64,000 nt of DNA from Sedimentisphaerales bacterium (GTDB lineage Bacteria > Planctomycetota > Phycisphaerae > Sedimentisphaerales > SM23-30): positions 1 through 64,000 of the forward strand of contig CAXXFK010000032.1 of the NCBI GenBank assembly GCA_963663965.2, given 5' to 3'. A program made the position numbers and the translations under genes. This document shows, piece by piece, positions 10,803 to 14,795 of the stretch; positions within the stretch are counted from its first letter, which is position 1, and each line of letters opens with the position of its first letter. Under the pieces are notes generated by a model. The model was not told the origin of the DNA. It did no database searches and saw only the letters and a list, made by a program, of their open reading frames with translations.

Positions 10803-11619
10803 ATCGAGTAGGCATGGGCTTTGCAGCCCCAACCTCTCACGCCACCCGGCGTGCCTGCTCGGTACCGGGCGATTTCCTATGGCATTCCATTCAAATCCCG
10901 CCATCTGCGAGACAGGCTGATCAATCCTCGTTCTTTAAACCATGGCAAATTCATGGCTTGGTGCGATTGAGGCATGGCGCTTTTCCGCCAGTACCCCACA
11001 CCGCTCAATGCGCCGATAAGCCTGGCGCAGATTGTTTTTGGCGACAATTTGTTCCATCAGATGGTCGGTCAGGGGTTGAGTAGCCGAGATCGCCGCAACA
11101 CAACTGCACGCCTCGGGCCGGGCAGCTTGAGCGCTGCGCTCGCCGCCCCGGTCGGGGTTCATGTTTCCTTGAGTTGTCGGCGCCTGGTTGGCCATCGAGT
11201 GTCTCGCTCACAACGAGCCTGTCCATAAGATCCGGTCCTTCAGAAGCTTAAAGGAGGCTCCCTAATATGACCTCTGCTGACTTCTGCAAGAATCCATGCC
11301 CTCCTTAAGCGTTGTCGCCTCGATGGCACGGTGTCCATTATGACTGCCTTGCAGACCTCCCGGAGTAAGATGGCATGCCAACCGTTGGGCCTCACCGAAT
11401 TTACCGGCGTTGTCTCCGAATGAGTATCGGGCGCCGAAATCCATTGCTCCCTTGCCCAGACGACACCGGCCGGCTATCCGGTTCCTGTCCGTCGAGTCCA
11501 ACTTTGACCCGAGGCTTCCTTCCCAAGATGCATCACTGCACCGCAGTTGCCTTTGGCTCGCCGTCCCGCTCATCACAGGAACTTTAACCCCATGAGCATG
11601 ACATCATTGACCGGCGCAA
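10803..11619 (-). mobile_element. Class IIC group II intron, internally deleted (RT-less) copy, 817 nt
   Basis: Minus strand starts TTGCGCCGG at 11619 and ends CCTACTCGAT at 10803; domain V/VI sequence at ~10803-10875; colinear with the 5' and 3' ends of the adjacent full intron. Confidence 0.9.
10877..11195 (-). pseudogene. Remnant of the intron RT/maturase (N-terminus joined out of frame to the C-terminal end)
   Basis: MANQAPTTQG...NLRQAYRR matches the N-terminus of the neighbouring RT, then jumps at GCGCCGA (11010-11016) into sequence matching the RT 3' end. Confidence 0.85.
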
Positions 11620-13513
11620 ATCGAGTAGGCGGGGGCTTTGCAGCCCCAACCTCTCACACCACCCGGCGTGCCTGCTCGGCACCGGGCGGTTTCCTATGGA
11701 ATTTCTTTTAAATCCCGCCATCTGCGAGACAGGCTGATCAATCCTTGTTCTTTAAACCATTGCAAATTCATGGCTTGGTGCGATTGAGGCATGGCGCTTT
11801 TCCGCCAGTACCCCACACCGCTCAATGCGCCGAGCCAGGCTTGGTATTCGGCGACACCGTGGCGAATAAAGAACTTGGCAGTCGTATAGTTCCGCTTGAG
11901 TTGTTTGAGTTTGATGGCTCGCAACTTGCGGCGAATCCAGCCGTCCAGCTTCTTCAGTGTCGCATCGCTGCGGATGTATCGGTAATAATTGAGCCATCCG
12001 GTCAGCGTACGGTTTACGCGCGTAATAATCGCCGCGTATCGCCCCGGCTTGTTGCGCCGGGTCAACTCGCGAATCTTGTCCTTAAAACGGGAGACACTCT
12101 TTTGGGACAGTCCGAGGCTCCCGTCGTCGAAACAGGCGGTAGCCGAGAAAGCTGCGCTCACTCACATGGCCTACCGCCGATTTCTCCCGATTCACTTTGA
12201 GTTTCAGCTGGACTTGCAGGAAACGAGTCACACTGTCCAGCACCCGTTCGCCGGCCCGAATCGACTGCACATAGATATTGCAGTCATCCGCATAACGCAC
12301 AAATCGGTGGCCGCGCTTTTCCATCTCCCGGTCGAAGTCTGTCAATAACACATTCGCCAGCAATGGGCTCAGGGGGCCGCCTTGCGGAGTGCCCTCTTCG
12401 CGCGGTTGCACCACGCCATCCTGCATTAAGCCCGCACTTAAGAAGGCTCGCAGCAGTTTCAGCAGCCGCTTGTCTTTGACAGAGCGGGCCACTCGGGCCA
12501 TCAGCATATCGTGATTGACCCGGTCAAAGAACTTCTCCAAGTCCATATCGACTACAACGTTGTAGCCGTTCCGGACATACTCGCTCGCCTTGCCAATGGC
12601 CTGATGAGCGCTTCGGCCGGGCCGAAACCCATAACTGGCGTTACTGAATTCTCGCTCAAAAATGGGAGTCAGGACTTGTAGGATCGCCTGTTGTACCATC
12701 CGGTCCACGGCTGTGGGAATACCCAGTTGCCGCCGACCGCCGCCGGGTTTGGGAATAGTAACTCCGCGCACCGGTGCCGGACGATACCGGCCGGTCAACA
12801 GGTGTTCGATCAGTTCGCTGATATGCGCGCGGCACCATGCGTACAGGTCTTCAACGGTCATACCGTCGATACCGGCCGCTCCTTTATTGGCCACGACGCG
12901 CCGATAAGCCTGGCGCAGATTGTCTTTGGCAACAATCTGTTCCATCAGATGGTCGGTCAGGGGTTGGGGTGTCGAGATCGCCGCAGCGCAACTACACGCC
13001 TCGGGCCGGACAGCTTGAGTACCGCTCTCGCCGCCCCGGCCGGGGTTCAAATCGCCTTGAGTTGTCGGTGCCTGGTTGGCCATCGAGTGTCTCGCTCGCA
13101 ACGAGCCTGTCCATAAAATTCGGTCCTTTGGGAGCTTAAAGGAAGCCCCCTACTATGACCTCTGCTGACTTCTGCAAGAATCCGTGCCATCTTGAGCGTT
13201 ATAGTCTTGATAGCACAGTGTCCAACAGGACTGCCTTGCAGATCTCCCGGGGTAAGATATCATGCTTCCCGTTGGGCCTCGCCGAATTTACCGTTGTCGT
13301 CTCCGAATGAGTATCGGGCATCGGAATCCATTGCTCCCTTACCCAGACGACACCGGCCTGCTATCCGGTTCCTGTCCGTCGAGTCCAACTTTGACCTGAG
13401 GCTTCCTTCCCACGATGCATCACTGCACCGCAGTTGCCTTCGGCTCGCGGTTCCGCTCATCACGGCCCGCAGGGGACTTTAACCCCATGAGCATGATATC
13501 ATGCCCGGCGCAC
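11620..13513 (-). mobile_element. Class IIC group II intron, full length (1,894 nt)
   Basis: 5' GTGCGCCGGGCAT at 13513 immediately after a terminator hairpin + TTTTTTA; domain V AAACCGCCCGGTGCCGAGCAGGCACGCCGGGTGGT with CGC triad; 3' end CCTACTCGAT at 11620; encodes an RT. Confidence 0.95.
11694..13083 (-). CDS. ltrA: Group II intron reverse transcriptase/maturase without endonuclease domain; one +1 frameshift at ~12131
   Basis: RT motifs GIPTAVDRMVQQA, SYGFRPGRSAHQA, DLEKFFDRVNHD, GTPQGGPLSPLLAN, RYADD, FLGY; maturase GWLNYY...LDGWIRRKLR in the next frame; deleting one T of a TTT run joins the two ORFs. Confidence 0.93.
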
Positions 13514-13545
13514 TAAAAAAGCCGCGGCGCGAAGGGGCCGCGGCT
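13514..13545 (-). terminator. Rho-independent terminator of the GT4-GH57 operon; target site of the IIC introns
   Basis: Minus strand AGCCGCGGC-CCCTTCGC-GCCGCGGCT followed by a T-tract then A. Confidence 0.88.
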
Positions 13546-13565
13546 CGTGTTGTACATTCATATCG

Positions 13566-14795
13566 TCAGACTAACTGCACGGATCCATGCGGTTCGGCCA
13601 CCTGCACTTTTTTGCCGGTGGCTTCACGGCACCGCGTGAGTAAATTATCCATGACATTCATATAATTGATATAAGAATCATACGGGCTGTCGTAAGGGTT
13701 GAAATATTTATGGACATCGCCATCCGAGAACCACTTGGTACACATGTAATAAAAATGATCGGAGGTCAGCAATTTGCGCCAATCCTCGAGGATGGACGGA
13801 TCACCGGTTTGTTTAATAGTTTTTTCGATCCGGTAAATTTCGTGCAGTGCGTTGGACTGCATGGCGTTGCCCAGCCAGGCGGACAGGTCGCGTTCAGTAT
13901 CGGCCCAGCTGATCATAAACGGGACATCGTAATCGCCATGGGCCTCATAGGCTCCGGCGACTTCGGAGGGGGTTTTGAAATCATTATCAGGATGACGCAG
14001 GATCTCGCCGGGCAGATGCGCCAGGAATTCAAAAATTCCGGTGTCTTCCCATTGATGTTCGCCCAGGGTTTCATAATCCATAAACAGGTTGACCGTATAG
14101 CCGCAGCCATTGACATCCGAGACCCAATTCGCAAATTTGGGGGCGGTCAGGGGCCATTCCGCCCAGCCCCGATTGGAAAAGCGAAACGCGATGTCGTCGC
14201 TGAGCCGATAATTTTTCAACAGCAGTTTGACATCGCCACGGCCAGGCGTGTTGTAAATAAAGTTGGGGCTGCGATATCCCAGGATATGGTCGGCGCCTTC
14301 ACACAACACGGCTTTGTAGCCGAGTTCGGCCATAAAATGAGCCAGATCATTATTAAAGATCAATTCGGTATTGCGAAAGACCTTGGGCTCCTGGCCGAAC
14401 AGCGACTTAATCCGGTCGCGATGTTTCGTAACTTGTTCGAGGAATTCTTCGCGCGAATAGAGAAACGACAGGCTATGGTAATAGGTCTCGCCGATGAATT
14501 CGACGCACCCGGTATCGGCCAGGGCATGAAACGTACTCATCACTTCGGGGCAGTATTGCTCGAACTGATCGAGCACGACACCGGTAATGCTGTAGGAGAT
14601 TTTGAACCGTCCTTCAAACTGATCGATCAGTTTGAGCATCAACCGGTTGGCCGGCAGATAGCACTTATTGGCCACCTTGCGACAGATCTGGGCGTTTTTG
14701 TATTCGTCGAAATAGTTATGCTCCGTATCGAAGATACTGTAACGGCGCAGACGGTAGGGTTGATGAACCTGGAAATAAAAACAAACTGAAGCCAT
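13566..14795 (-). CDS. Glycoside hydrolase family 57 (alpha-amylase type)
   Basis: FQVHQPYRL, ETYYHSL, FRNTELIF, FMDYETLGEHQW and SDHFYYM motifs. Confidence 0.92.
   Translation of the reverse strand: MASVCFYFQVHQPYRLRRYSIFDTEHNYFDEYKNAQICRKVANKCYLPANRLMLKLIDQFEGRFKISYSITGVVLDQFEQYCPEVMSTFHALADTGCVEFIGETYYHSLSFLYSREEFLEQVTKHRDRIKSLFGQEPKVFRNTELIFNNDLAHFMAELGYKAVLCEGADHILGYRSPNFIYNTPGRGDVKLLLKNYRLSDDIAFRFSNRGWAEWPLTAPKFANWVSDVNGCGYTVNLFMDYETLGEHQWEDTGIFEFLAHLPGEILRHPDNDFKTPSEVAGAYEAHGDYDVPFMISWADTERDLSAWLGNAMQSNALHEIYRIEKTIKQTGDPSILEDWRKLLTSDHFYYMCTKWFSDGDVHKYFNPYDSPYDSYINYMNVMDNLLTRCREATGKKVQVAEPHGSVQLV

Follow-up and report, generated by a model that had tools for sequence, protein, structure and literature searches.

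Group IIC (class C) introns such as GsI-IIC, represented by the reverse transcriptase (RT) structure PDB 6AR1, and B.h.I1 (PMC1702495) use a terminator as their target, recognize it through a four-nucleotide exon-binding site 1 (EBS1) together with EBS3, and encode an RT with a domain X and no endonuclease. In the laboratory, a second copy of the group IIB1 intron EcKTE56.groEL enters the junction between the exon and the first copy, where the first base of the resident serves as intron-binding site 3 (IBS3) (PMC12584367). Here, we describe a window, the whole stretch of 64,000 nucleotides formed by positions 1 to 64,000 of contig CAXXFK010000032.1 from a Sedimentisphaerales bacterium (GCA_963663965.2), in which two group IIC introns, A and B, stand head-to-tail on the minus strand behind one intrinsic terminator. 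The stack itself is of a kind already known; what is new is a conserved +1 break in the RT/maturase gene, that is, the gene of the intron-encoded protein (IEP), of intron A.

Intron A has the same kind of target, exon-binding elements and RT domains as GsI-IIC and B.h.I1, and 6AR1 was the best solved match for both halves of the intron A protein. In contrast to GsI-IIC and B.h.I1, whose IEP is one open frame, the IEP of intron A is split by the +1 break at the joint between RT and thumb. The tandem of EcKTE56.groEL likewise passes from a 3' end to a 5' end without a spacer, but it was made in the laboratory, its IIB1 copies were identical and its EBS3 pair was U-G, whereas the IIC copies described here are natural and 5-12% apart (PMC12584367). 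Twintrons also record repeated intron insertion at one locus; they are defined as one intron nested inside another (PMC4424553). Since A and B are adjacent and not nested, intron A ending before intron B begins, the pair is not a twintron.

For the break, the closest described systems are of other kinds. FseA (msi172-msi171) of ICEMlSymR7A is made by a +1 ribosomal frameshift at UUU, which is needed for the activity of the mobile element and was proposed to be a damper (PMC5009743). FseA is a transcription activator of an integrative and conjugative element with a conserved W-G upstream, whereas in intron A the gene is that of an RT/maturase, a hairpin precedes the site and a second UUU-stop site follows it. 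The nearest RT precedent is that of the diversity-generating retroelement of Quimbyvirus, which is a working RT in broken frames (three) with proposed programmed frameshifts; it is a phage RT with two breaks and not a group II maturase (PMC8008677). Among titles and the beginnings of abstracts, with subscription journals mostly missing, we found no report of programmed frameshifting in a group II intron protein. Within the available portions, the text of PMC5009743 did not mention group II introns, that of PMC4424553 did not mention frameshifts, and the main text of PMC3711429 did not mention intron, maturase or reverse transcriptase, nor did two of its supplements.

A conserved +1 break in the RT/maturase gene of intron A

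The RT/maturase gene of intron A changed frame by +1 at CUG-UUU-C, a feature absent from the original prediction made for this DNA (Table 1). The GsI-IIC RT (6AR1) matched frame 0 at residues 4-281 and the +1 frame at residues 283-418 (E 8e-116 and 4e-18), and the break therefore lies at the palm/thumb joint. Domain X has been described as the thumb and as important for processivity (PMC5769746). When TTTC was read as one step, the protein aligned without a gap to an unsplit relative (70 of 141 residues identical), and the slipped full-length product is predicted to have 462 aa. PF00078 and PF08388 were the only families found in it, as fits class C without endonuclease, and they were split over the two frames.

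The same break was present in a solitary copy of the intron elsewhere in the genome (C18), in locus L011 and in 7/7 metagenome loci at 74-86% identity, and in none of the 73 more distant ones among the 80 metagenome loci. Additionally, a contig from another study crossed the break without a gap, differing at 29 of 581 nt. We surveyed the best 83 homologous protein clusters, of which 81 stopped at or shortly after the break site: 77 ended 15 aa past the motif G-[YH]-[RC]-L-F, one ended after 20 aa, and three ended right at F. Of the remaining two clusters, one carried an off-frame tail of 54 aa and the other was truncated ahead of the motif. The source names of the clusters include Spirochaetales and Verrucomicrobiota, and a search started from a deep member yielded a further cluster of the shifted type (P0240). 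In a quick tree of 117 rows (three of 120 were left out for lack of the motif), one branch with an SH-aLRT of 96 split 82 shifted from 35 unshifted rows.

Both IEP halves are under purifying selection, as judged from eight DNA loci. The ratio of nonsynonymous to synonymous substitution rates (dN/dS) was 0.04-0.10 in the RT part (19 of 28 pairs, nine being saturated) and 0.07-0.27 in the +1 part (27 of 28 pairs); loci L011, L012 and L024, which carry further damage upstream, were left out. The conserved break, the gap-free contig of another study and the purifying selection rule out the break as decay or an assembly error. Another explanation is that the split IEP is dead and that intact IEPs mobilise the lineage in trans. 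The genome does hold a more distant intact IIC intron at C35 with an open frame of 476 aa, but this explanation is barely credible and is largely refuted by the dN/dS of 0.04-0.27 across both halves, with saturated dS, and by the absence of additional breaks in all seven close metagenome loci.

Further DNA of the shifted lineage was sought in samples of the phylum (1/400 matches) and the class (2/400), none of them shown to be shifted; one locus came from viral contigs, in which the thumb query had no match, and plasmids gave none. Two groups of sister-lineage clusters were also observed: P0099, P0106, P0239, P0243, P0244, P0251, P0264 and P0267 ended 19 aa past the RT7 motif at ...ERL, and P0114, P0237 and P0254 ended 3 aa past it. 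These groups may represent recoding that arose independently, or read-through, at this RT|thumb joint; a search for their DNA found none. If the sister-lineage breaks are independent, the RT|thumb joint would be a recurring recoding point in retroelements.

Table 1. Features of the stacked introns in the window (window positions; strand as indicated)
Feature	Position	Strand	Remark
Intrinsic terminator, target hairpin + T-run	13514..13546	-	10-bp hairpin; DNA fold -12.9 kcal/mol, z -3.5
IBS1 position, TTTA	final four bases of terminator 13514..13546	-	
Intron A, full-length group IIC, GTGCG...CTCGAT, 1,894 nt	11620..13513	-	
Intron B, decayed ORF-deleted copy, TTGCG...CTCGAT, 817 nt	10803..11619	-	G1 changed to T
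IEP frame 0: RT0-RT7 (fingers + palm, intact YADD) + 15-aa tail, 333 aa	12082..13083	-	PF00078, E 3e-40
IEP +1 frame: thumb/maturase domain X + C-terminal part, 144 aa	11694..12128	-	PF08388, E 3.5e-18
Site 1, UUU-C in CUG-UUU-C, predicted +1 ribosomal slip site	12129..12132	-	
Conserved RNA hairpin, 3' arm running into the slip site	12129..12184	-	synonymous null test
Site 2, CCG-UUU-UAA, conserved frame-0 stop 15 codons on	12082..12090	-	possible second slip site
Weaker downstream hairpin, 3' arm = site 2	12125-12086	-	
Domains V + VI of intron A, bulged A at 11626	11620..11690	-	fold z -5.3
Delta (C) + EBS1 (AAUG) of intron A	13329..13333	-	Rfam alignment; register test
EBS1 (AAUG) of intron B	11445-11442	-	
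GUAAAU motif of intron A, EBS3 = A at 13288	13286..13291	-	pairs with T at +1 of intron B
TCGGCGC microhomology at the 1,071-nt deletion of intron B	11010..11016	-	
GH57 glycoside hydrolase gene	13566-14795	-	ends in the terminator

The predicted slip site, the second site and the hairpins

Synonymous variation moved from frame 0 to the +1 frame at CUG-UUU-Y. The codon at site 1 was TTT in 12/12 DNA loci, always followed by C or T, while Phe codons overall were divided almost evenly between TTT (58) and TTC (56). The last frame-0 residue was F in 81/81 shifted rows versus L in 29 of 32 full-length rows, and only Q, R, P, W, L or a stop followed this F in frame 0. A purine after UUU, which would give the Leu of the unsplit relatives and block re-pairing of tRNA-Phe, was not seen at site 1. 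Because three clusters stop right after F, the site is fixed at or before this residue. Among invariant residues, identical codons were used at 8 of 13 near the site versus 16 of 193 elsewhere, in kin that are not independent of one another. UUU_Ynn has been described as especially prone to +1 slippage in bacteria (PMC5009743).

Upstream of the predicted slip site, the hairpin beat a synonymous null in 10/10 shifted loci versus 1/14 unshifted loci. A refolding upstream hairpin is reported to stimulate +1 frameshifting, also in a 70S system (PMC6321510). Beyond the slip site, frame 0 remained open for 15 codons up to CCG-UUU-UAA (UGA in L158), and this was the most conserved stretch of the gene. 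Site 2 may be a second slip site, the fixed end of an RT-only product or an arm of the downstream hairpin.

The conserved break, the site motif and the selection acting on each half can be read from the compared sequences; from them, we infer the slip, the role of the hairpin and the purpose. Programmed +1 ribosomal frameshifting in the RT/maturase of this lineage is quite likely. The IIC introns of this lineage have one extra base between the RT domain and the thumb/maturase domain. According to this proposal, the ribosome would read frame 0 to G-Y-R-L-F, and tRNA-Phe on UUU would slip by one base onto UUC/UUU, so that translation would continue in the +1 frame and yield, as a minority product, the 462-aa RT/maturase on which splicing and retrohoming depend. 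Without a slip, ribosomes would stop 15 codons later at site 2 and release the 333-aa RT-only protein. The hairpin just 5' of the slip site would probably stimulate the slip by refolding behind the ribosome, and the likely effect would be that the active enzyme, and hence the mobility of the element, is held down.

Several observations weigh against this proposal. In the upstream hairpin, all changes were one-sided and none made a compensatory pair. A similar fold was found in the unshifted relatives nearest to the lineage (L133, L136, L137 and L148; p 0-0.085); the hairpin may thus be older than the break or may serve the intron RNA. The downstream hairpin beat the null in only 5 of 11 loci. 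Site 2 was conserved as strongly as site 1, for which a slip at site 1 does not account. Moreover, the DNA around the site comes from 13 loci only, the other rows being predicted proteins, and all are kin.

We also weighed whether the two halves could be made separately, the RT from its own start and the thumb from an internal TTG behind GGGAG or by re-initiation, and assemble in trans. Gene callers do predict a 138-aa protein from the internal TTG in many relatives. However, this internal start could be ATG in 0/78 and could not be ATG, GTG or TTG in 44/78, the GGGAG motif was changed in at least 24/78, and the +1 residues upstream of the TTG (D-G-x-L-G) were conserved with synonymous variation. 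In the +1 frame between the last upstream stop and codon 44, no codon was ATG, GTG or TTG in more than 6 of 10 loci. Separate production also leaves the invariant UUU-Y without an explanation, and we give it only a slight chance.

Somewhat less improbable, at a low level all the same, is a correction of the frame in the RNA, by transcriptional slippage or another base loss, or a shift made mainly at site 2 instead of site 1. UUU followed by a stop was found at site 2 in 76/78 tails, and the synonymous conservation there was the strongest in the gene (0.02-0.07 vs 0.49). At three intervening positions, a synonymous T would make a stop, and 0/78 tails had one; frame 0 thus seems to be kept open to site 2. 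On the other hand, the run of T at site 1 spans only 3-4 bases, the +1 frame between the two sites keeps ancestral residues while the frame-0 residues vary radically, and the three clusters that end at site 1 never get as far as site 2.

Returning to programmed slippage at site 1, we tentatively extend it to an intron lineage that spans several phyla and might set the ratio of full RT/maturase to RT-only protein by a hairpin-stimulated slip. The RT-only fingers-palm protein, which lacks the thumb but could still bind intron RNA, would then be a competitor, and the second UUU-stop site might tune or rescue the output; sister lineages may have undergone separate breaks at this joint. The predicted RT-only product would end 15 aa past the motif, close to the RT-domain chains of 292-305 aa in PDB 5HHL and 5HHJ. 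Split IEP genes of this kind are read as pseudogenes or as two open reading frames (ORFs), so that a probably active lineage with 81 or more protein clusters is wrongly counted as dead. If the proposal is true, group II introns would join the mobile elements that use translational recoding, and the upstream hairpin would be a natural bacterial case at a +1 site. It would also make testable the standing question of how promoterless retroelements limit their own RT.

Architecture of the stacked introns

The pair consists of class IIC introns behind a terminator, and the stack is real. The terminator abuts intron A and intron A abuts intron B with no spacer at either junction, after which TATTTTGG follows on the minus strand. 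The junctions at 13513/11620/11619/10803, together with the Rfam domain I matches, bear out the original prediction of two class IIC introns head-to-tail without a spacer. The group II domain I families scored 115.7 bits in intron A vs 88.5 bits in intron B (RF02001) and 49.1 vs 47.8 bits (RF01998), and RF00029 remained below the gathering score in both introns in the same scan. Insertion just behind a terminator, as had been stated for class IIC introns, was also observed, as intron A begins 6 nt and the C18 copy 5 nt behind their hairpins. Both introns retained GCAATGGATT, in agreement with the prediction.

The copies were said to differ by scattered substitutions and an indel of about 9 nt near the 5' end. 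The substitutions were found (identity of 87.5% over the first 610 nt of B and 94.9% over its last 214 nt), but the indel proved to be an 8-nt deletion plus a 1-nt insertion, and intron B has additionally lost 1,071 nt between two TCGGCGC repeats (intron A positions 610 and 1681). Nearly the whole ORF is missing from intron B owing to this deletion. The 5' GUGYG is present in intron A and absent from intron B, in which T replaces a G found in 6/6 outgroups. The fold of domains V and VI with the bulged A was weaker in intron B (z -2.9) than in intron A. The CGC triad, which has a role in class IIC introns, was present. A segmental duplication, which the original prediction had named as an alternative origin of the pair, is ruled out, since no part of the flanks occurs twice and the copies differ by 5-12%.

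Contigs of run X1 covered all three junctions with 0 differences but reached only 29-30 letters into one side, against the 31 letters per side that we used for junction support. In particular, the A|B junction was covered by a 177-nt X1 contig with 0 differences and 30 letters on the A side. One X2 contig joined an intron 3' end (44 letters) to the 5' end of intron B, and one X2 contig fused the 5' end of intron B to an A-type body. The two runs come from a single sample, from which the assembly may itself have been made, and are not independent support. None of the run contigs examined covered the whole array; copies A and B are too divergent for a collapsed repeat.

Empty or single-copy alleles, whose search had been proposed, were looked for in two ways. 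No junction skipping A, B or both was found among the contigs of four runs, an uninformative result as contigs lose rare variants. Among 20 GH57 loci of the family including that of the window, none of the 19 relatives had an ECF sigma factor gene or an intron beside the GH57 gene, and there is thus no synteny to compare.

Exon recognition

In the standard register, EBS1 paired with exon position -1 in 23/23 metagenome loci in which both were readable, with three or four pairs in 20 of them, whereas the register two bases on, UGGA, paired at this position in 10/23. The original prediction had taken UGGA as EBS1 from its pairing with the exon end. UGGA does form 4/4 pairs with TTTA here, but in the Rfam alignment and the register test it is two bases off, and EBS1 is AAUG instead. 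An unusual EBS1 register at the window site alone may nevertheless occur. AAUG formed 2/4 pairs with TTTA, with A opposite A at exon -1; the base may have changed after insertion, an extra A may have entered at the junction, or the event itself may have been unusual. For the C18 copy, EBS1 and IBS1 formed 3/4 pairs.

In 26 of 29 loci, EBS3, the variable base of GUA-N-AU, formed a pair with the base that opens the 3' exon. EBS3 was A in introns A and B alike, and the EBS3-IBS3 pair was A-T for both, the first base of intron B being T; for the C18 copy it was a mismatch.

Order of insertion

The solitary C18 copy (C18:123258-125151) lay behind another, unrelated terminator and differed from intron A by 7 substitutions (99.6% identity), which is an indirect sign of self-splicing and retrohoming by the lineage. 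Intron A matched this copy end to end and is thus not chimeric, and each of the two had private changes. In comparison with six outgroups, the 5' part of intron B carried 37 derived substitutions and 3 indels versus 17 substitutions in intron A. When only columns without variation among the other sequences were counted, B had 26 substitutions and 3 indels, the change of G1 to T included, versus 3 in A. The 3' part of B had changes in domains V and VI. We also examined intron B as a chimera of two ages and rejected this, the decay rates of its 5' and 3' parts being not significantly different (p 0.16). In another genome, G006, a solitary intron starting with TTGTG was observed behind a T-run (L235:1514); loss of G1 beside T-runs is not unique to B.

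The junctions and the decay of intron B are plain. As B is a decayed copy and A is 99.6% identical to the solitary C18 copy, A is favoured as the newcomer, and on these comparisons we lean towards A having arrived last and displaced the older B. The older IIC intron B would first have entered the site behind the terminator and then have decayed, its ORF being lost through a deletion between 7-nt repeats. Its younger relative A would later have reverse-spliced into the same terminator|intron junction, where the first base of B, T, pairs with the EBS3 of A. This A-T pair would have been made possible by the decay of the G1 of intron B, in contrast to the U-G pair used by EcKTE56.groEL (PMC12584367).

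The order in the original prediction, in which a newer intron pushes the older one away, is the likelier one. Three points count against this order: the exon -1 A cannot pair with EBS1, AAUG makes 2/4 pairs with TTTA and 3/4 with the CGAT end of A, and EBS3 was unpaired with the downstream G in four of five outside genomes with complete pairs. Because the EBS3 pair was absent in these four, it is not required for stacking. Taken jointly, arrival of A as the last intron in the stack and a programmed +1 frameshift in its IEP make an explanation that we hold to be likely from the sequences compared.

The prediction had also proposed that splicing of A would restore the terminator as the 5' exon of B, in an ordered, twintron-like manner. 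G1 is important for splicing. The introns are not nested, B lacks G1 and has lost pairs in domains I, V and VI, and ordered splicing of B from the terminator exon after A has spliced is unlikely.

In the opposite order, A would be the resident, B would have inserted behind it using the domain VI hairpin and CGAT as IBS1, and A would later have been gene-converted from C18. AAUG pairs 3/4 with CGAT, position -1 included, and domain VI with part of domain V folds as DNA at -11.9 kcal/mol. L073 points to this route, as there the downstream EBS1 (AUCG) pairs 4/4 with the CGAT end of the upstream intron and the upstream EBS1 (CAGA) pairs 4/4 with the terminator exon, and a long-standing terminator|A junction would leave time for the -1 base to mutate. 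However, B is far more decayed than A, so that A would need near-complete conversion, and the private changes in both A and C18 speak against conversion. We regard the opposite order as rather doubtful.

A pair made at the DNA level, by recombination with a circular or cDNA copy or by inter-locus rearrangement, or a join made in assembly, is less probable still. It would draw on a 386-nt, 5'-truncated 3' fragment close to intron B (G000 C10:251769-251384), which shares 10 of 11 differences of the 3' part of intron B from A and is accompanied by TTGCGC, on the array being unspanned by any single read, and on the X2 contig with the 5' end of B and an A-type body. Conversely, A is not chimeric, the junction sequence is present in run contigs, a single crossover would leave the old 5' end in front, opposite to the arrangement observed, and the two parts of B do not differ significantly in decay rate. 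As to the fragment itself, we observed that it starts near an 8-nt repeat, followed by TTGCGC, the six bases that open intron B, either by chance or as a relic junction. The gene ahead of it is presumably dehydratase-like.

Stacked introns in other genomes

We scanned a genome collection for an intron 3' end joined to N-TGYGCC and obtained 42 stretches, of which 40 were scanned with Rfam; several lie on very small contigs or at contig ends and could be artefacts of assembly. A downstream domain I match was present in 21 of the 40, and all 21 start with G. We rejected the idea that a T at +1 marks stacking or intron circles, as the 42 matches had G in 36, T in 3, C in 2 and A in 1, and the five scanned non-G cases were without a downstream domain I match versus the 21 G cases with one.

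Complete pairs with unique flanks were found at nine loci in five genomes, with copies 82-100% identical. Five of these (L044, L049, L055, L056 and L072) were tandem pairs of a 659-nt ORF-less IIC intron on one Dialister chromosome, in which EBS3 is C, fitting the G of the resident, and each 3' exon also starts with G; the copies vary in EBS1 (AUGA, UCGA or UGCA). In the remaining four genomes, EBS3 does not fit. L073 (junction at 2540) contains two ORF-less IIC introns with 82% identity. Its downstream EBS1 is the exact complement of the end of the upstream intron, which suggests that the downstream intron is a candidate for targeting the domain VI end of other introns and thus for a reverse route of stacking. 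Stacking is an under-described but ordinary habit; among titles and the beginnings of abstracts, we found no paper devoted to natural IIC stacks.

Two further arrangements were observed. At L081:2410-2413, an intron of the shifted lineage is followed by 3 nt (TTA) and then by a different IIC intron with EBS1 UAAA, forming a mixed stack behind one terminator. L035 contains a full-length and ORF-less pair with 89% identity in a layout like that of the window, with a third copy about 1.3 kb further.

Neighbouring genes and other RTs of the genome

Beyond intron B lies the upstream region of an extracytoplasmic function (ECF) sigma factor gene. At window positions 10460-8179, right downstream of the stack, the ECF sigma factor gene is followed by one for a FecR/NPCBM-domain protein. 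In G007, a relative of the family, a fragment encodes a protein that its source assigns to Phycisphaerae, which makes this the probable class of the host. Elsewhere in the genome (G000), one further RT was found at C42, and five equally scoring copies of another RT with an open frame of 580-583 aa were found at C2, C6, C21, C25 and C28 (L002-L006); these are probably a second, recently spreading group II intron family.

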